From the UHGV virus genome UHGV-0125821: a stretch of DNA of 64,000 bases. The stretch is one strand, 5' to 3'. This DNA is from a virus. Under the pieces are notes generated by a model. That model was not told the origin of the DNA, made no database searches, and saw only the letters and a program-made list of their open reading frames with translations. Of the stretch, positions 9,792 through 62,660 are shown piece after piece. The position numbers and the translations under genes are program-made. Position 1 is the stretch's first letter. Each line of letters begins with the position of its first letter.

Positions 9792-9842
9792 CCTGTGTGT
9801 CTACAAAACATCCCAATGATCGGAAAATGCTCGCTCGATAAT

Positions 9843-9873
9843 TTGTGTTAGAAAATTAATTTGCTGTTTCTAA
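9843..9873. promoter_or_regulatory. Bivalent operator-like site (GTTAGA-N16-TCTAA inverted pair) upstream of the c4/icd/ant-like module
   Basis: TGTGTTAGAAAATTAATTTGCTGTTTCTAAA; same core spacing as three other bivalent copies; positioned like P1 Op51. Confidence 0.45.
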
Positions 9874-26890: not shown

Positions 26891-26906
26891 TTAATTTTCT
26901 AATACA
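26891..26906. promoter_or_regulatory. Operator-like motif TTAATTTTCTAATACA (variant core TCTAATA)
   Basis: About 80 nt upstream of the lpa-position gene; in P1 the lpa promoter is C1-controlled. Confidence 0.4.
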
Positions 26907-26982
26907 ATCATCTTTTTACCAGTCTATACAGTTTTAACATTCTCATTATCATCCCCTCGGTCATTTCCTGCCCGGGGGATTA

Positions 26983-31321: not shown

Positions 31322-31338
31322 ATTTAGTTTTCTAACAT
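31322..31338. promoter_or_regulatory. Operator-like motif ATTTAGTTTTCTAACAT at the 5-prime end of the c1-position gene
   Basis: Exact shared 15-mer; position suggests autoregulation. Confidence 0.45.
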
Positions 31339-31520
31339 AAAATTACTATGACAAATTTATGTCGAATAACAGAGTGAGTAAAGGATCGAACTGTGATTTT
31401 TTGTCATCAATTTTAGAAAACCAACCGTAGAAACCACACTTCGCAAATTAAAGACCATGAAGGCAACGTGTTACTGGTCATCATCAATCTATGATGGGTT
31501 AAAAAAAAATCGGCATTTTA

Positions 31521-33151: not shown

Positions 33152-33624
33152 AAACTTATTACCCATCTCTGAATTGTTACCCGTCTTCCTATCCAGGATT
33201 GTCCGGGAAGCTGTTAGCTCTATTAGCTAAAGCACCTACGGAATGGTTTAAGCCAGTCGTTATCAATCCACACTTCCTGGATTACGGATCTGTTCGCACT
33301 CGTAACGAACTCAAAAACTTACTGGCGCATGGATTCATTCGACACCGTGCCGGTAAAGGCTATCAGTTATCGATTGCGCCAGAAGAGGCCGTGCGGCTAT
33401 TCGCATATCGTGACAGCCAGACAAAAGCTCGGGTAATAGCTCAAATACTTCATAACGGCAGCACCTATGCCCGCCAGTTTGGCGGCGACACGTCGCAGTT
33501 CTTGCGGGCGGTGCGATCGCTGGAGGAGCAAGGAGTTATTGAAAGTTCCTGTCTTCCTGTTCCTACCGTTCCACATATCAAACGTCGGGTTTACACCTTC
33601 ACGCAGAGAGCTAAAAAACAATGA
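33148..33624 (+). CDS. Hypothetical protein, possible winged-helix DNA binder
   Basis: 158 aa; 4-nt overlaps with both neighbours. Confidence 0.5.
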   Translation: MKTYYPSLNCYPSSYPGLSGKLLALLAKAPTEWFKPVVINPHFLDYGSVRTRNELKNLLAHGFIRHRAGKGYQLSIAPEEAVRLFAYRDSQTKARVIAQILHNGSTYARQFGGDTSQFLRAVRSLEEQGVIESSCLPVPTVPHIKRRVYTFTQRAKKQ

Positions 33625-34115
33625 TTTACGTAAAAGTGAAACGCCTACATCCGGCAGCAAAACTTCCAGCTTATGCCACCTCCGGATCGGCGGCGATGGA
33701 TTTTGAGGCTGTTGAAATAAAACCATGTGTCGATAGCAATGGTGCAATTTCCTCAAGCTGGTGGGTATACACCGGACTGGCTATGGAGATCCCGCCCGGC
33801 TGGTGTCTGAAACTCTATCCGCGTTCCGGATTGGGCTGCAAAAAACATACTCGCCTGGCTAACTGCGTAGGAATTATCGACTCCGATTATCGCGGTGAAA
33901 TCATGGCAAAACTGATTACAGATCCCGGTGGTGAAGGCGTTTGCCTCAAGCCAGGAATGGCGGTCATGCAAGGCATTTTTGAGCGTGTTGAACCGGTATC
34001 GCTGGTAGAAGTTGATGAACTCGATGAAACAGAGCGAGGCGCTGGTGGCTTTGGTAGCACATCGGAAGACCGCGTTGAAATCAAGCGTACACCGCTTCAG
34101 TACGCAAAGTTTTAA
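33621..34115 (+). CDS. dut: dUTP pyrophosphatase (dUTPase)
   Basis: Conserved dUTPase motifs GIIDSDYRGE and RGAGGFGSTS. Confidence 0.85.
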   Translation: MIYVKVKRLHPAAKLPAYATSGSAAMDFEAVEIKPCVDSNGAISSSWWVYTGLAMEIPPGWCLKLYPRSGLGCKKHTRLANCVGIIDSDYRGEIMAKLITDPGGEGVCLKPGMAVMQGIFERVEPVSLVEVDELDETERGAGGFGSTSEDRVEIKRTPLQYAKF

Positions 34116-42199: not shown

Positions 42200-43195
42200 T
42201 CAGTTATTGAAAGTGATCACTCCGCGCTCGATGGCGAAGTCAAAAAGCTGGTTAGCGGCTACGTAAAGGCGTATGCCATGTGCTTTTTCCCATGCCCGAA
42301 CATCGTTTTCTGCGCTTCTGGCGCAGTCATCGCAAAGAGGAACAGCCCAGCGGTCGTGTTCGTTTAACGAGCGGGCGCGGTACATGAACGGGTGGTTAAC
42401 TTTGCCACCGCATCCGATGCACGGACGAGAAACCACAAACCGGAGATAAGCCGGGCTTTTACCGAGGACCGCTTTTGGTCGGCGCATATAAAGCAGACCG
42501 GAATCCTCATCTACAGACAGGTTGACGATCTGCTCTGCGGTTATGTCCACCAGCTCACGGGTGCTGTGCTCCCAGGTGATATCTGATTCTTTCAGCGTAC
42601 CGGTAGGGATTTCAGTTTTTGGCTGACAAAATGCAATGCGACCGGCTTCATCTGGCAGCTCATCTTTCAGATTCCGGCGAATGGCCCAAAAAGTGAGTTC
42701 AACCATGCTCAGATCGCGTTCTGGCGGTAGTTTTAACTCGCTCGCAGCCCAGTTCATAACCCAGTTGGCACGATTCAGGGATAACTGGTCGTCCAGCTTG
42801 CTGTACCCCTTCATCATGTATTCCGCATCATGCTTCCAGCACAGGCGAACGGCAGAGCCGTTATAGAAATGGGTGGTTAGCTGGTGGCTGCAATCGCGCT
42901 TATCGTGCGCCTGGCAATCGTGGATATTGGAACTTACCCAATGAACAAGCGAATCTTCACCGCCCAACGCGTTAAATACGCGCTCGCTTTGAAAAAACGG
43001 TTTCAGAGACTGGTTGGCAACCAGCGAATAATTCAGATCCACTACGCCATCTGGCGTGTTTTCAGCCTGTTCACGCGGAAGTGGGGAGATAATGAAACGG
43101 CGACCTGCGCCAATGTAGTTGCTGGTGGGCTTGTCTACCGGAAAGACAGCCACACCAGCTCCGTTTACGAAATGAGGTGTGATTATTGCACTCAT
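42200..43195 (-). CDS. Hypothetical protein with C-terminal Cys-rich zinc-binding-like motif
   Basis: 331 aa; CIGCGG...PLCDDC near the C-terminus; first gene after the bivalent operator. Confidence 0.5.
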   Translation of the reverse strand: MSAIITPHFVNGAGVAVFPVDKPTSNYIGAGRRFIISPLPREQAENTPDGVVDLNYSLVANQSLKPFFQSERVFNALGGEDSLVHWVSSNIHDCQAHDKRDCSHQLTTHFYNGSAVRLCWKHDAEYMMKGYSKLDDQLSLNRANWVMNWAASELKLPPERDLSMVELTFWAIRRNLKDELPDEAGRIAFCQPKTEIPTGTLKESDITWEHSTRELVDITAEQIVNLSVDEDSGLLYMRRPKAVLGKSPAYLRFVVSRPCIGCGGKVNHPFMYRARSLNEHDRWAVPLCDDCARSAENDVRAWEKAHGIRLYVAANQLFDFAIERGVITFNN

Positions 43196-44877: not shown

Positions 44878-45201
44878 TCATTTTCTTAAGTCCTCTTCCC
44901 GGATAACGTTGTTGCACGCATCCACACACTCGTCGCAGATGAAAACGTCTTCCCCGGCAATTAACTTTTTGACGGCGTGCTGTGGTTTATTGCAGAAGCT
45001 GCAATAAAGCGTTCGCCTGACTGATACGGATGGTGCGCCAGATGTCAGCCGCGCGATGTCGTTCTTGCGACGCAATATCACACGGCTGCACTCGACCAGC
45101 ATCTCCGGGGATATCTTCTCCTCCGTAGCGAGCGTTTCTAATCGTTCGAGTATGTGGAAGGCTTTTTCCTGGGTAATTGCAGAATGCGATGTGGTCATCA
45201 T
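44878..45201 (-). CDS. Small protein with ClpX-type N-terminal zinc-binding-domain-like C4 module
   Basis: [39 protein letters not shown] parallels the ClpX N-domain ([40 protein letters not shown]); no AAA+ module. Confidence 0.6.
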
Positions 45202-45866: not shown

Positions 45867-46372
45867 TGGATGACTCCTTTACGAAGCTGTTCGGCGATAT
45901 CTTCGAGAACGCCATCAGAGAATGAGCGATCAAAATCGCCTTCCGGCGCATTAGCCATAAACTCAGTAGAGGTAAGAATCATCCGGGCAATATCCGCGGC
46001 GTTCTTCGCAGTATCATCAATAAAACCAGCTTTCCAGGCAGCCAGCATTCTGTTCGCCACAAAGTAAGCGCCCTCCTTGCGTGCTTCAGTCTTCACTTCA
46101 TCCAGGAAAGTGTCGGTCGCAGGAGTAGTTTTTTGTGGTGATAGGGCGATACGAATTGTTTCAAGAGCTGGATCTATTTCCACTGTTGGCACCTTGATAA
46201 AACCAAGCTGCACGCCATTCATAATGAACGTGCGGCGATCCTCACATATCGCCTTCAGTCTCGCATTCTCCGCAGCCAGCGCCGCGCGCTCTTTCTCAAG
46301 TCGGGAAATTTCCGTTACATACTCAGCGTTACGCTCTGCCAGTTGTGCGGGCGTTAAACCTTCAGACTTCAT
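45863..46372 (-). CDS. Paralog-family early protein (coiled-coil)
   Basis: C-terminus [11 protein letters not shown] and the shared junction. Confidence 0.5.
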   Translation of the reverse strand: MKSEGLTPAQLAERNAEYVTEISRLEKERAALAAENARLKAICEDRRTFIMNGVQLGFIKVPTVEIDPALETIRIALSPQKTTPATDTFLDEVKTEARKEGAYFVANRMLAAWKAGFIDDTAKNAADIARMILTSTEFMANAPEGDFDRSFSDGVLEDIAEQLRKGVIQ

Positions 46373-46679
46373 ACACTCTCCTTTCGAAATAAACGTACTG
46401 ATTAATCATGCCCAGGGGCATTTCGAGTTTTTCCGCGATCTCACGGCGGGGAACACCACACTGATGAAGCTGCCGTGCCAGTTCTATATCGCTCTGCCGG
46501 TATTTGGCTGACGGATGAAAGTCTCCTTTCAGAATCATGCTGATCCCCAACTCCCGCGCTTTAGTCCTGACGGCATCACCGGTACGACCGATCAGCTTCC
46601 CAATACTCTCGACCGTCATAGTTCCGGCGCACTGGCGGAGTATCATGATTTCTGCCCTTCCCCATCCCCGCCAGCTCAC
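46362..46679 (-). CDS. Small HTH-containing protein
   Basis: 105 aa; IGKLIGRTGDAVRTKARELG looks like an HTH. Confidence 0.45.
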   Translation of the reverse strand: MSWRGWGRAEIMILRQCAGTMTVESIGKLIGRTGDAVRTKARELGISMILKGDFHPSAKYRQSDIELARQLHQCGVPRREIAEKLEMPLGMINQYVYFERRVYEV

Positions 46680-47314
46680 GCAGAACTCCTTCTAACCAAA
46701 AGAACGCCATCTTCAGAAACAACGTTGCAGGACTTCAGGTAATTCATTGCCTCTTTCGGTAATGGATTCTTTGGATCGGCGTTTGCCAGGGATTTCGATA
46801 ACCTCATGATAAATTTGATCATTACCTTCTGGCGGAGCTTGTGCTCATGAGATAAAGAAAGGTAATAGGAAATGGTATGGGCTAAACGCTCACGAAGCTG
46901 TTCTGTGCCGTGATATACAGCAGCGATATCACGCAGTGCATTGACCAGTTCCCGGTAAATATGTGGAGCAACCTGGCATTCAATGTTGGTTGGTGACTCA
47001 TAAATTACAGTCAGCCCCAGCTTTTCAGCCAGCGCGTGCTCTGCACGAGCACCAACCGATTCTTCCCATTGATTGAGCAAATAGATCGCATCAGCAGAAC
47101 GCACCATTGCCAGGCAAATATCCATGTATTCACTCTGGCAAAGGCCACCAGGTAACACCGCTGGATTCAGAACGATATGCCCTTCAGCCATCAGCTCGCT
47201 CGCTTTCGCATTAAACGCCGCACGGTTGTAATCTGGATAACCAGTCATCGGCCCCGCGATGTAAATTTTCAAAACACGTTTCACCATCAAAATTTCCCCA
47301 AAATCGTGACGCAA
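46676..47314 (-). CDS. DUF4406-like (nucleoside 2-deoxyribosyltransferase-fold) protein with C-terminal extension
   Basis: KIYIAGPMTGYPDYNRAAF...HIVLNPA...DAIYLL fits the DUF4406 pattern; start may be the internal Met at about 47287. Confidence 0.5.
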   Translation of the reverse strand: MRHDFGEILMVKRVLKIYIAGPMTGYPDYNRAAFNAKASELMAEGHIVLNPAVLPGGLCQSEYMDICLAMVRSADAIYLLNQWEESVGARAEHALAEKLGLTVIYESPTNIECQVAPHIYRELVNALRDIAAVYHGTEQLRERLAHTISYYLSLSHEHKLRQKVMIKFIMRLSKSLANADPKNPLPKEAMNYLKSCNVVSEDGVLLVRRSSA

Positions 47315-47480
47315 AACATAAGCACTGCGAAAAGCTCAATACCAAGCTCAAGTAGCGCCAACGCCCCGAAAAACAACACATAGAACAGGCCAATCTCATT
47401 CACAGATGGCTGGTGGATCGCACTTAAAGCTATAAGCATCATGTCCTCCAAACAGTTATCAGGAATGATATTAATGTTTT

Positions 47481-47510
47481 GTGTTAGAAAATCAATTTTG
47501 AATATCTAAC
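47481..47510. promoter_or_regulatory. Bivalent operator-like site between divergent ref and the minus-strand early operon
   Basis: GTGTTAGAAAATCAATTTTGAATATCTAAC with 16-bp core spacing; P1 ref is C1-controlled. Confidence 0.5.
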
Positions 47511-47559
47511 TGTTTTGATCAATCATAGAAAAATAGCTGAAAAGTAAGAGGCAGCCATC

Positions 47560-48138
47560 ATGCAGAAACAGAGCTATTGGGAGAAACAGAGACAAAAAGC
47601 CATGCAAAAATTGGCTGACCCAGCCTGGCGAGAGGAACAAAGGGCAAAGCGCCTTCAACAAGCTCAACGCCAGCAGCAACGAGCGAGAGAAAAAGCCGCA
47701 TCGCCTGAATATCGGCAAAAGAGAATTGAAAAAGCAAAGCAATATGACCAGCGGAGAAAAGAGAAAACTGTATCCGCTCCGTCCAAAAAAACACGCACGT
47801 CACGCGGCCTGAAGGGCAGATCACTCACAGCCGATGAACGCCGGATACAGACCGCTATCGGTACTCTCCCCTGCATTGCCTGCCATATTCACGGGCAACA
47901 TAGCCCAGTGGTATCCCTGCACCATATCTTCGGGAGAACGGCAGAGAACGCGCATAAATATGTCCTCCCTTTGTGTAAATGGCACCACCAGTACGCAGCG
48001 CCAGCCGAGGTCCGAGAACAATATCCCTGGCTGGTCCCTGTTCATGCTGACGGAAAAATAGGCGGAAAAGCAGATTTCATGCGGCACAATGCCGATGAAA
48101 TGACGTTATATCAGATGGCGATTGAATTGATAAATTAG
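47560..48138 (+). CDS. ref: Ref-like HNH endonuclease (recombination enhancement function)
   Basis: Basic disordered N-terminal region followed by Cys/His-rich core CIACHIHGQH...LCKWHHQ, as in P1 Ref; size close to P1 Ref. Confidence 0.8.
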   Translation: MQKQSYWEKQRQKAMQKLADPAWREEQRAKRLQQAQRQQQRAREKAASPEYRQKRIEKAKQYDQRRKEKTVSAPSKKTRTSRGLKGRSLTADERRIQTAIGTLPCIACHIHGQHSPVVSLHHIFGRTAENAHKYVLPLCKWHHQYAAPAEVREQYPWLVPVHADGKIGGKADFMRHNADEMTLYQMAIELIN

Positions 48139-54359: not shown

Positions 54360-54698
54360 TCAGGCTGCTTTTTTATTCAGGTTCCGCTGAGAAATAAATT
54401 TTTCAGCAGTATTGATACGACTTAACTCTTCCTGAACGCGCATATCATTTTCGACTTCCCACAGATCTACTGCGGTCTGAAGATTAATCCAAAAATCTAC
54501 AGAAGTATCGAATGCTTTTGCCAGGCGATATGCCATATCCATCGTTAGCTTACGATTGTTATTAACAAGAGCACTTACGGTGTTACGATGAACATGAAGT
54601 ATTTCTGCTAACTCGTTGATCTTCAGCTCTAACGGCTCCAGGTATTCGTACAGCAGGATATCACCTACGGTCGTCGGTTTTCTGGTTGCCTGTTTCAT
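54360..54698 (-). CDS. higA: HigA antitoxin (XRE-family HTH)
   Basis: MKQATRKPTTVGDILLYEYLEPLELKINELAEILHVHRNTVSALVNN... is a typical HigA. Confidence 0.85.
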   Translation of the reverse strand: MKQATRKPTTVGDILLYEYLEPLELKINELAEILHVHRNTVSALVNNNRKLTMDMAYRLAKAFDTSVDFWINLQTAVDLWEVENDMRVQEELSRINTAEKFISQRNLNKKAA

Positions 54699-54768
54699 TT
54701 TTTGCCCTTACTAGCGTGCGTATTAAGTGGACTCTGGTCAGAACCCGGTCCGTAACCGGGTATCTGTT

Positions 54769-55071
54769 TTAGTATTTGTGAGGGTCGAGATACAAGTCCT
54801 CGGCCTTTCCGTTAACCCACTTAAAAATTAACCTATATTGCTTATTCACCCTTACTGATGAATAGCCATTTAGCTTCCCTGACAGTTCCTCATACCGATT
54901 ACCTGGTGGTGATCTTAAATCCTTACAGGTAGTTGCGGCATTGATAATGTCCAACTTCCGTGACAATGTCATATGAATATCAGGAGGTATCTTTCTATGT
55001 GGTGTTGAAAATTCAAAAAAATCATCAAGCCACGCATCCCTGAAATCCTTTATGTTAATTTTTTTGGTCAT
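54769..55071 (-). CDS. higB: HigB toxin (RelE/ParE superfamily)
   Basis: DDFFEF...LRSPPGNRYEELSGKLNGYSSVRVNKQYRLIF fits the HigB family; toxin gene precedes antitoxin as in higBA. Confidence 0.85.
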   Translation of the reverse strand: MTKKINIKDFRDAWLDDFFEFSTPHRKIPPDIHMTLSRKLDIINAATTCKDLRSPPGNRYEELSGKLNGYSSVRVNKQYRLIFKWVNGKAEDLYLDPHKY

Positions 55072-58423: not shown

Positions 58424-58437
58424 AAAATGCACCCATT

Positions 58438-58471
58438 TGTGTTAGATAATTAATATGTATTTTCTAACACA
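58438..58471. promoter_or_regulatory. Bivalent operator-like site immediately upstream of rdgC
   Basis: TGTGTTAGATAAT-TAATATGT-ATTTTCTAACACA: 13-bp arms matching 12/13 as an inverted repeat, 8-bp AT spacer; ends 12 nt before the ATG. Confidence 0.5.
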
Positions 58472-58482
58472 AATGGTGAGAC

Positions 58483-59388
58483 ATGAGATCAGTCGCTTTC
58501 AAAAATATCTTCATCTATCGTCTTTCACGCGAAGTTAGCTGGGATACTGCAGAAGTAAATGCAGCCCTTAGCAAGTTTGTGTTTACCCCATGCGGTTCTC
58601 AGGATATGGCTAAAGCTGGTTGGACCTCCGTTCTTGGTGACAACCTCACCCATGAATACCAGGGTTTTCTTCTGATACAGCATAAACGAGAGGAAAAAAT
58701 CCTACCCTCTCAAGTGCTCAAAGAAGAGTTACAGAAAAAAATCCTGACACTTGAAGAAGAGCAAGACAGAAAGCTGAAGAAGACTGAAAAAGATTCGCTG
58801 AAGGATGAAGTGCTTCACTCTCTGCTTCCTCGTGCTTTCACGAGAAAATCAGTCGCTAAAATCCTGATAGACCGAAGCAATCATCTGGTTTTTGTCGAGG
58901 CCAGCAGTGCTAAAAAAGCAGAGGATCAGCTGGCTTTGTTACGGAAATCGCTTGGCAGCTTGCCCGTTGTCCCCTTCTCTCCGAAAGACCCATTAGAACT
59001 GACCATCACTGGCTGGATTAAAAATGGCTTCCCGAACGGTTTCCGTGCCGGTGAGGAAGCGACCTTAAAAGCATTGCTTGATGATGGCGGCGCGGTCCGC
59101 TGCAAAAAAGTGGACCTGCTATCCGACGAGATCATGAGTCATATAGAAGCTGGTAAGGTTGCAACCACAGTTGCGGTTAACTGGCAAGACCGTGCATTTT
59201 TCAGACTGAATGACGATATGAGTATCAAGGCTTTGTCGTTCAGCGACGAATTGTACGACCAGAACGACGATATTGATCGAGAGGATGTTGCGCAACGATT
59301 TGACGCTGACTTTATCCTGTTTACTGCTGAATTATCCGCGATGTTCACTTCGCTGGTGGAGGCCGTTGGTGGTGAAGCTGAACGTTAA
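58483..59388 (+). CDS. rdgC: Recombination-associated protein RdgC homolog
   Basis: Aligns with E. coli RdgC over its length ([14 protein letters not shown]; [21 protein letters not shown]; [17 protein letters not shown]). Confidence 0.85.
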
Positions 59389-60998: not shown

Positions 60999-62660
60999 TT
61001 AACCTAACTTCGCCCAGGTATCACGCAGCCCAACGGTGCGGTTAAATACCGGTTTTTCCGCCGTAGAATGGCGGCTGTCGAGGCAGAAATAACCTTCACG
61101 CTCAAACTGGAATGCTTTACCCGCTACCGCTTCTTTCAGCGACGGTTCAGCAAAACCCTGTTTGATCACCAGCGATTCCGGGTTAATCACCGACAGGAAA
61201 TCATCCGCAGCACCTGGGTTCGGCACGCTGAACAGACGATCGTACAGGCGGATTTCAACCGGCAGCGCATGTGCCGCGCTCACCCAGTGAATAACGCCTT
61301 TCACTTTACGACCATCTGCCGGATCTTTGCTTAAGGTGTCGGCGTCATAAGTACAGAAGATGGTGGTGATATTGCCTTCGGCATCTTTCTCCACGCGTTC
61401 AGCCTTAATGACGTAAGCATTACGCAGACGCACTTCTTTACCCAGCACCAGACGTTTGTACTGCTTGTTAGCTTCTTCGCGGAAATCGGCGCGGTCGATC
61501 CAAATCTCACCGCTAAACGGCACCTGACGGCTACCCATTTCCGGTTTGTTCGGATGGTTCGGCATGGTGACCATTTCGCCTTCGCCCTGGTAGTTTTCGA
61601 TAACCAGTTTCACCGGATCGATAACCGCCATTGCGCGCGGCGCATTTTCGTTGAGATCTTCACGGATGCAGGATTCCAGCGACGCCATCTCAATGGTGTT
61701 GTCCTGCTTGGTCACGCCGATGCGTTTGCAGAACTCACGAATAGAAGCCGCAGTGTAACCACGACGACGCAGACCGGAAATGGTCGGCATACGCGGGTCA
61801 TCCCAGCCTTCAACGTGCTTGTCGGTCACCAGCAGGTTCAGCTTACGCTTGGACATCACGGTGTATTCCAGATTCAGGCGCGAGAATTCGTACTGGCGCG
61901 GGTGAACAGGAATGGTGATGTTGTCCAGCACCCAGTCGTACAGGCGACGGTTGTCCTGGAACTCAAGCGTACACAGAGAGTGCGTAATACCTTCCAGCGC
62001 ATCGCTGATGCAATGGGTGAAGTCGTACATCGGGTAGATGCACCACTTGTTGCCAGTCTGGTGGTGTTCAGCAAATTTAATGCGGTACAGCACCGGATCG
62101 CGCATTACGATAAATGGCGACGCCATGTCGATTTTCGCACGCAGGCAGGCTTTACCTTCTTCAAAACCACCGGTACGCATTTTTTCGAACAGCGCCAGGT
62201 TCTCTTCAACGCTGCGGTCGCGGTACGGGCTGTTTTTACCCGGCTGCGTCAGGGTGCCGCGGTATTCGCGGATCTGTTCCGGCGTCAGTTCATCAACGTA
62301 CGCCAGGCCTTTATTGATCAGTTCGATCGCATAGGCGTGGAGCTGATCAAAATAATCGGAGGAGTAACGGACGTTACCAGACCAGTGAAAACCTAACCAC
62401 TCAACGTCGTTTTTGATCGACTCAACATACTCGATATCTTCTTTTACCGGGTTAGTGTCGTCGAAACGCAGGTTGCACTGGCCTTTATAGTCCTGGGCGA
62501 TCCCGAAGTTCAGGCAGATAGATTTCGCATGACCAATATGCAGATAGCCATTCGGTTCCGGCGGGAAACGGGTATGTACTGTGGTGTGCTTACCACTGGC
62601 CAGATCTTCATCGATGATCTGACGAATAAAGTTAGTCGGGCGGGCTTCTGCCTCACTCAT
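60999..62660 (-). CDS. glnS: Glutaminyl-tRNA synthetase
   Basis: 553-aa product essentially identical to E. coli GlnS as I recall it ([18 protein letters not shown] motif; VMSKR KMSKS motif). Confidence 0.95.

Follow-up and report, generated by a model that had tools for sequence, protein, structure and literature searches.

The 64,000-nucleotide stretch of the virus genome UHGV-0125821 that was analysed here (the window) carries on its minus strand a gene for a protein of 203 amino acids (aa), the first half of which is a DUF4406 domain. The domain is related, at the level of the superfamily, to the nucleoside 2-deoxyribosyltransferases (NDTs), and we give about even chances to the reading that it would act as an N-glycosidase of a nucleoside 5'-monophosphate, dependent on Glu83 (E83) and possibly capable of phosphoribosyl transfer. 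The gene is real, had already been annotated and encodes a typical member of a large uncharacterised family. The coding sequence and the domain are located as follows:

46676..47287, minus strand: DUF4406 coding sequence, 203 aa, with its ATG at 47287 and its stop at 46676-46678; equals orf89/gp038 (YP_009914766) of Escherichia phage D6
47000..47269, minus strand: DUF4406 domain, aa 7-96, a four-stranded alpha/beta NDT-like core

Family, fold and conserved residues

The window protein is a full member of the Pfam family DUF4406 (PF14359) and of PHROGs 5781 and 355. The Pfam model was matched with 117.2 bits (E=4.3e-34; gathering cut-off 22 bits) over positions 2-91 of its 91, phrog_5781 (function unknown) was matched over the full length, and phrog_355, which is labelled "nucleoside 2-deoxyribosyltransferase", gave an E-value of 3.6e-43. 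NCBIfam holds no family for the protein. The profile search that the first-pass annotation had proposed thus upheld its recognition of a DUF4406-like protein, by the KIYIAGPMTG motif, in an open reading frame (ORF) at 46676-47314, although the start of the gene is likely a different one (see below).

An AlphaFold2 model built on an alignment of 54 sequences gave a pLDDT above 90 for aa 1-100, in which the order strand-helix is repeated four times. The resulting flavodoxin-like alpha/beta fold is held in common with solved members of the NDT / N-glycosidase superfamily (NDT, DNPH1, MilB and DmtZ). A search of the PDB with the window protein as a single sequence returned noise only, whereas the family profile retrieved the NDT of T. 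brucei (2a0k, E=0.0097) as the only significant sequence match. In that alignment IYIAGP is paired with IYIAGP, L-N-P with L-I-P, D-A with D-A and S-a-G-A-r-a-E with D-C-G-T-A-F-E, and P42 is aligned with the transferase proline of the T. brucei enzyme.

The motif residues in the window protein are Y9, G12-P13-x-T15-G16, N21, P42, D66 and S77-x-G79-A80-x-x-E83. Among 54 enterobacterial-type sequences L71, S77, G79, E83 and A87 are invariant, and in a set of 15 diverse sequences, in which enterobacterial proteins were combined with those of actinophages and of Pseudomonas, Vibrio and Yersinia phages, the invariant residues are N21, F25, L32, P42, L71, S77, G79, A80 and E83. The position of E83 is in register with that of the catalytic glutamate, being paired with the Glu of DCGTAFE in the T. 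brucei enzyme and, in human DNPH1, with E104. In the window protein Y9 and D66 are in register with the other two residues of the catalytic triad, but both positions vary among the members of the family (see below). The first-pass annotation had made its proposal hinge on conserved catalytic residues, and the catalytic-type Glu is indeed invariant.

Comparison with related enzymes

The class I/II NDTs (PF05014; e.g. those of L. leichmannii, T. brucei and L. mexicana) have the same fold as the DUF4406 proteins, begin with the same IYIAGP and likewise carry a Pro behind strand 2 and the G-x-x-x-E motif. Where the NDTs have an Asp that binds the 5'-OH, six residues before the Glu, DUF4406 has the invariant S77. 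DUF4406 is also about 50 residues shorter: the domain ends around aa 97, after which an unrelated helical tail follows, and the C-terminal NDT segment that gives an Asn/Tyr to the neighbouring active site is absent. Moreover, the PF05014 model did not match the window protein at E<=1. Judged by sequence, strict membership of the NDTs therefore fails on three features, namely the absent match to PF05014, the Ser that replaces the Asp and the lack of the C-terminal segment. The relationship that had been proposed at first holds in this restricted sense: it is confirmed for the superfamily and not for the NDTs proper. Some DUF4406 proteins of actinophages do match PF05014; Tweety19 gp28 reaches 29.2 bits, with a cut-off of 28.8 bits, and Amelia gp53 stays below it.

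A second group of relatives consists of DNPH1/Rcl and MilB/BlsM, which are N-glycosidases of deoxynucleoside monophosphates (dNMPs) and of CMP/hydroxymethyl-CMP, respectively. Residues Y24, D80, S98 and E104 of DNPH1, the sequence of which was checked against PDB entries (one of these being the E104Q mutant), are in register with Y9, D66, S77 and E83 of DUF4406. The part of these enzymes by which the partner subunit supplies a second phosphate-binding Ser is missing in DUF4406, and the invariant P42 of DUF4406 is not found in DNPH1. The related DUF1937 family (PF09152; PDB 1t1j, PA1492) is likewise uncharacterised and adds no functional information.

The third relative is DmtZ, an NDT-like phage enzyme which releases adenine from dAMP by hydrolysis and passes deoxyribose-5-phosphate on to 2-aminoadenine (PMC12884076, 2026). 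Its triad is formed by Tyr6, Asn77 and Glu103, the E103A and Y6A variants are dead, and the enzyme combines an uncharged phosphate pocket with a retained transferase-type Pro (PMC12884076). The DmtZ proteins of the Z-genome actinophages (Ghobes, and the N-terminal domain of Wayne gp53) resemble DUF4406 in having S-x-G-x-x-x-E, a Tyr after strand 1, a Pro after strand 2, an Asp or Asn at the third triad position and an uncharged residue at the position of the NDT 5'-OH-binding Asp. They also resemble DUF4406 in being associated with pyrophosphohydrolases of deoxynucleoside triphosphates (dNTPs). Within gp53 of Arthrobacter phage Wayne, the DmtZ domain has the stretch S-W-G-V-P-A-E in register with S77-E83, its S85 pairing with S77. 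DmtZ is, however, about 145 aa long, has five strands and is not matched by the Pfam DUF4406 model. It is a working analogue and a superfamily relative of DUF4406, not a member of the family.

A putative N-glycosidase of nucleoside 5'-monophosphates

An N-glycosidase acting on 5'-monophosphates is favoured over a nucleoside transferase because of the replacement of the NDT Asp by S77 and because of the association with nucleoside triphosphate (NTP) pyrophosphohydrolases. With respect to the former, it has been reported that a small uncharged residue (Ser, Val or Gly) that replaces the Asp at the 5' pocket admits a 5'-phosphate (PMC12884076). With respect to the latter, in gp157 of Mycobacteriophage Hannaconda DUF4406 is fused to a nucleotide pyrophosphohydrolase (full-length match to phrog_12019; aa 103-237 matched by phrog_671 at 1.3e-36), and in Pseudomonas phage AUS531phi the gene of a dATP/dGTP pyrophosphohydrolase (PF04447, 1.6e-25) extends over the start of the DUF4406 gene. 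In addition, two proteins named after PF04447 are present among the BFVD fold matches. These links suggest an order of reactions that runs from dNTP via dNMP to the base. The role in the nucleotide pool that the first-pass annotation had put forward is plausible in view of these fusions and adjacencies and of the DmtZ precedent; its connection with the dUTPase of the window is a different matter, to which we return below. Nothing in the analysis bears on the nucleotide-based signalling that had been suggested alongside it.

The proposed mechanism is the following. The window protein, which comprises two parts, would be made early by a D6/P1-like phage-plasmid. Its DUF4406 domain (90 aa) would represent a minimal member of the NDT / N-glycosidase superfamily and would most likely break the N-glycosidic bond in a (deoxy)nucleotide that carries a 5'-phosphate. 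Glu83 would serve as the nucleophile, positioned by Tyr9 and Asp66, and room for the 5'-phosphate would be provided by Ser77 and the G12-P-M-T-G16/N21-R22 loop. The products would be the free base and (deoxy)ribose-5-phosphate, and, like phage DmtZ, the enzyme might transfer the phosphoribosyl moiety to another base. In this way part of the nucleotide pool would be trimmed or re-routed during early replication. The tail, with its two portable helical modules taken over from the mosaic Ea22/DUF551-type genes that in temperate phages are normally found downstream of DUF4406, would probably mediate oligomerisation or the docking of a partner.

Several observations weigh against this reading. Within the family at large D66 is replaced by N, T or Q, and Y9 by F, in some members, and the domain is devoid of the C-terminal strand and helix which in NDT and DNPH1 give active-site residues to the partner subunit. 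Comparison by hhalign placed the motifs in register, yet the probabilities obtained (0.3% for DNPH1 and 0.4% for Wayne DmtZ) are insignificant; because of this lack of significant sequence similarity, the mapping of residues onto DNPH1 and DmtZ rests on the fold and on the register of the motifs. Among 80 enterobacterial loci from IMG/VR there is no recurrent neighbour from nucleotide metabolism, a statistic that is biased by lineage as only enterobacterial relatives are included. Finally, literature searches returned no functional report on DUF4406 or DUF1937 proteins, and no more than incidental mentions of DUF4406.

With its Ser at the 5' pocket, its invariant Glu and its transferase-type Pro, the domain shows the same combination of residues as DmtZ. 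Together with the recurrent NTP pyrophosphohydrolase fusions, this pattern leads to a concrete hypothesis, namely that the domain is an N-glycosidase of dNMPs or NMPs, or a phosphoribosyl transferase. If this is true, many temperate phages with ordinary DNA would edit their nucleotide pools by the removal of bases, an activity that so far has been linked chiefly to phages whose genomes are modified. The domain is common: it is represented by at least 6,500 protein clusters and was found in 718 of 50,697 phage records, comprising Mycobacterium, Arthrobacter, Vibrio, Gordonia, Pseudomonas and enterobacterial phages. For this window the gain is incremental and lies in the sharper hypothesis and in the description of the portable modules of the tail.

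A profile search returned at least 6,545 DUF4406 matches, mostly in proteins of 92-112 aa, and stand-alone proteins of this size make up most of the family (at least 6,500 members), the two-module tail described below being largely confined to D6-like phage-plasmids. The loci examined always have the DUF4406 gene in an early or replication-proximal operon: in lambdoid prophages it comes after the replication genes and DUF977, and in P2-like prophages it is located between dam and gpA. In the 80 IMG/VR loci, the recurrent neighbours are replication proteins of the DnaB/DnaC/O type upstream and mosaic proteins of the Ea22/DUF551 type downstream.

The labels 'deoxycytidylate deaminase' and 'MazG-like pyrophosphatase' in actinophage records were considered as possible signs of further fusions and were rejected, as the 122-aa Amelia gp53 (from an Arthrobacter phage; locus L003, 2477-2845) and Tweety19 gp28 (locus L005, 2501-2869) hold a DUF4406 domain only. 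These labels are likely annotation errors that are spreading in the public records.

The gene and the element that carries it

D6 is a plasmid prophage related to P1. A region of 2.4 kb around the DUF4406 gene has 97.5% DNA identity to D6, and a stretch of 5.5 kb is 99.9% identical to the E. coli plasmid NZ_CP047013, with similar sequence in 607 plasmid records. Because of these identities the window is taken to be part of a D6-like phage-plasmid. A DUF4406 gene of 612 nt is annotated both in D6 and in NZ_CP047013, and the 203-aa product is found in more than 50 database clusters. The D6 protein, which is 98% identical to the window protein over the first 100 aa (tblastn), is encoded at the same position beside ref, and its product is labelled "DUF4406 domain-containing protein" in D6 and in the RefSeq plasmids.

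The minus-strand ORF that covers 46676..47314 is present in the window, and the TTG at 47314 with which it begins falls within a small hydrophobic ORF located upstream. The ATG at 47287 is preceded, 7 nt upstream, by GGGGA and shares a base with the TGA stop codon of that small ORF, in the form TGATG. Because of this Shine-Dalgarno sequence and this overlap the ATG is preferred, so that the gene likely starts at 47287 and not at 47314.

The C-terminal extension

The part of the protein that follows the domain measures about 105 aa (98-203), somewhat more than the roughly 90 aa given at first. The first-pass annotation had left it unassigned; no known fold is attributed to it, and it is composed of two portable modules of the kind found in mosaic prophage proteins:

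46847..46981, minus strand: module A, aa ~103-147, H-x-YRELVN-x-LRD...QLRE, a portable helical module
46679..46843, minus strand: module B, aa ~149-203, LRQK..M..L..SL....P......AM.YLK....S.D, a rarer helical module

A word-based search with the C-terminal half recovered the same protein family only. An exhaustive HMMER search with the C-terminal part, by contrast, yielded 226 representative clusters at E<=1e-3, nearly all of which match over the ~45 aa of module A only. This module usually lies near the C-terminus of proteins that are otherwise unrelated and whose median length is 196 aa. Among 120 proteins with module A, the Pfam partners are DUF551 (9), DUF3850/ASCH (3+2), Ead_Ea22 (2), DUF5490 (2), R67 DHFR (DHFR_2) (1) and an Rv2179c-like exoribonuclease (1). 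When the window protein and these 120 proteins were scanned, no Pfam model was found to cover module A itself, and the extension is not matched by the Ead_Ea22 or DUF551 models. The analysis flags a portable helical module that has no Pfam family and is common to many prophage accessory proteins. Module A (~40 aa) is widespread in such proteins of enterobacterial prophages, two copies being present in P0122 and P0125; within the window there are no other copies of module A or B.

The Ead/Ea22-like and DUF551 mosaic proteins of lambdoid prophages have module A, module B or both in common with the extension while lacking the DUF4406 domain, and in prophages their genes often sit just downstream of DUF4406. 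In 70 of the 80 related loci DUF4406 stands alone. Module B is then found in a separate gene, 1-11 genes downstream, in 24 of the 70, and module A in a separate downstream gene in four; neither module was ever found upstream. In the fused relative P0081 the C-terminus comes from yet another family of downstream genes. Since modules A and B and the tail of P0081 all match separate downstream genes, the best reading of the tail is that of a segment captured from mosaic genes in its neighbourhood.

The two halves of the protein assort independently among alleles, with identities for the N- and C-terminal half of 81%/98%, 99%/68% and 92%/62%. The ratio of nonsynonymous to synonymous substitution rates (dN/dS) is 0.35-0.44 for the tail and 0.12-0.32 for the N-terminal half. 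The value for the tail indicates purifying selection, and the tail is therefore not junk. NDT-type enzymes are dimers or hexamers with shared active sites; for the tail, a role in oligomerisation or in the docking of a partner is our guess.

Alternative readings

Less likely is a role in counter-defence or host takeover, in which the enzyme would cleave NAD+ or an immune signal derived from NAD or a nucleotide, like TIR or SLOG proteins, or would deplete a nucleotide against competing phages. The gene is part of an early accessory operon beside Ea22-like mosaic genes, DUF4406 is widespread in temperate phages, and the alleles of both halves are unusually divergent and assort independently on near-identical plasmids, as is common for genes in an arms race. 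However, TIR and SLOG proteins were not borne out as the closest structural neighbours, NDT, MilB and DUF1937 outscoring the TIRs, and no match to known anti-defence proteins was obtained. The NTP pyrophosphohydrolase fusions, moreover, point to ordinary chemistry of (d)NTPs and (d)NMPs. The marginal match of PADLOC to CARF_HEPN (E=5e-4) was taken as noise from a Rossmann-like fold.

It is rather improbable that DUF4406 is a non-catalytic module for nucleotide binding or scaffolding and that the helical tail is the acting part, for instance by binding a host or phage protein. The small size of the domain compared with the active NDT and DNPH1 enzymes, the missing partner-subunit elements, the variation at D66 and Y9 and the joining of module A to many unrelated small domains would all fit such a role. 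Nonetheless, the invariant S-x-G-A-x-x-E with its Glu in the catalytic register would be difficult to account for without catalysis or a very specific binding of a ligand, and most members of the family stand alone and have no tail at all. Another reading, to which we attach a similarly small probability, is that module A docks interchangeable small effectors on one host or phage target early in infection, the effector being DUF4406 here and DUF551, ASCH/DUF3850, an exoribonuclease or an R67-type DHFR elsewhere. In that case the DUF4406 head might serve counter-defence or superinfection exclusion by the local destruction of a nucleotide, which could be a dNMP or an immune signal.

The first-pass annotation had also connected the protein to a dUTPase gene, whose presence is borne out by a Pfam match:

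33621..34115, plus strand: dUTPase (PF00692, E=1.3e-13), in a separate transcription unit

A two-step pathway in which this dUTPase converts dUTP to dUMP and the DUF4406 protein subsequently releases uracil and deoxyribose-5-phosphate, comparable to DmtZ with DutZ, is highly improbable. Both genes are present in the window, and a precedent exists in the fusion of DmtZ to the Dut-like DutZ in 77 of the 85 PurZ0 phages that have both (PMC12884076). Yet the dUTPase gene is located 12.5 kb from the DUF4406 gene, on the opposite strand and in a different gene string, which as a plus-strand series converges on the leftward operon at its far end, and because of this layout the link is without support. 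Moreover, a Dut-like recurrent neighbour was found in none of the 80 related loci, and DmtZ is not a DUF4406 protein. DmtZ occurs together with PurZ0 and is linked to DutZ by fusion or adjacency, whereas for the Dut and DUF4406 genes of the window no fusion or adjacency of this type was found, nor any sign of a Z-genome. No PurA-like gene is annotated in the examined parts of D6 or NZ_CP047013, and the window was not scanned as a whole for PurZ/PurZ0.

Least probable of all is a genuine NDT that swaps bases between deoxynucleosides, as the PHROG and GenBank labels literally say: the phrog_355 label and similar names of many phage homologues, the place of NDTs among the best fold matches and as the only significant PDB sequence match, and the alignment of P42 with a Pro typical of transferases (PMC12884076) speak for it, but the labels were transferred by homology, and the lack of a PF05014 match, the missing C-terminal segment and the replacement of the 5'-OH-binding Asp by an invariant Ser, as in 5'-phosphate-specific enzymes, stand against it.

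Operon position and regulation

From 47442 leftwards to ~35.7 kb the minus strand is closely packed with ORFs, and the gene string includes a helix-turn-helix (HTH) protein, Ea22-like proteins, a protein that consists of a ClpX zinc finger only, a metallophosphoesterase and a DUF968 protein. The features around the start of this string are:

47287-47442, minus strand: small hydrophobic ORF, 50/51 aa, D6 orf88, first ORF of the operon (phrog_8890, E=2.5e-35)
46362..46679, minus strand: next downstream gene, HTH/D5-like regulator family (phrog_323, E=6.7e-28), abutting or overlapping the DUF4406 stop
47560..48138, plus strand: ref (RecA-dependent nuclease), divergent (PF16786, E=7.5e-35; D6 annotation)
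47478..47492, plus strand: operator-like 15-mer TTTGTGTTAGAAAAT, in the intergenic region between ref and the leftward operon
47468..47495, minus strand: candidate sigma-70 promoter TTGATT-16 nt-TAATAT, read by hand from the sequence, with the operator-like site in its spacer

The DUF4406 gene is the second ORF of the leftward operon and the first of sizeable length. It had initially been placed at the head of the operon, a position that belongs to the ORF of 50/51 codons at 47287-47442. This conserved ORF is translationally coupled to the DUF4406 gene via the TGATG overlap.

The 15-mer TTTGTGTTAGAAAAT occurs at six sites in the window when up to two mismatches are allowed, versus 0.21 expected (9842-9856, 26894-26908, 31327-31341, 47478-47492, 58436-58450 and 58459-58473). 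Near 58.45 kb one pair is inverted, the starts being 23 bp apart. The layout of the set is like that of the P1 C1 operators, whereas the P1 consensus ATTGCTCTAATAAATTT itself is absent, with no matches at up to three mismatches. The sites are probably the immunity operator set of a D6-type element, and we infer that a repressor is their ligand. A promoter scan of the 108-bp intergenic region (47452-47559) gave no site over the threshold, and the TTGATT/TAATAT candidate falls below it. Going by this arrangement of genes and sites, it seems reasonable to regard the leftward unit as an early operon under the control of a repressor.

Other genes of the window

Directly after the inverted operator-like pair, at 58483-59388 on the plus strand, a full-length RdgC homologue is encoded (PF04381, 6e-102). 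Together with ref, this suggests that the element carries several modulators of RecA.

Two further genes of the leftward operon deserve mention. The gene at 44878-45201 (minus strand) encodes a protein of 107 aa of which the ClpX C4 zinc finger is the only recognisable part (PF06689, 1e-17), without an AAA+ module, and which is mislabelled 'carboxylate--amine ligase' in D6; it could be a mimic of, or a competitor to, the ClpX N-domain in the binding of adaptors or substrates. At 42200-43195 (minus strand), in the same operon as DUF4406, lies a DUF968 (PdcB-like) gene. In Vibrio phage pVa-2 (locus L007, 2773-3780), which is unrelated, a DUF968 gene likewise extends over the end of the DUF4406 gene, and in a lambdoid prophage (locus L009) one is found a few kb downstream of DUF4406, which may reflect a recurrent association or the mere co-residence of both genes in the nin region.

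The window further contains, at 60999-62660 on the minus strand, a gene for a full-length class I glutaminyl-tRNA synthetase of 553 aa (PF00749, 1.6e-129, and both anticodon-binding domains). The gene is annotated as glnS in NZ_CP047013 and constitutes an unusual cargo for a P1/D6-like element. Among the tail genes, at 54360-55071 on the minus strand, a HigB-like toxin (PF05015, 4.4e-35) is paired with an HTH antitoxin, the two presumably forming a plasmid-addiction module.

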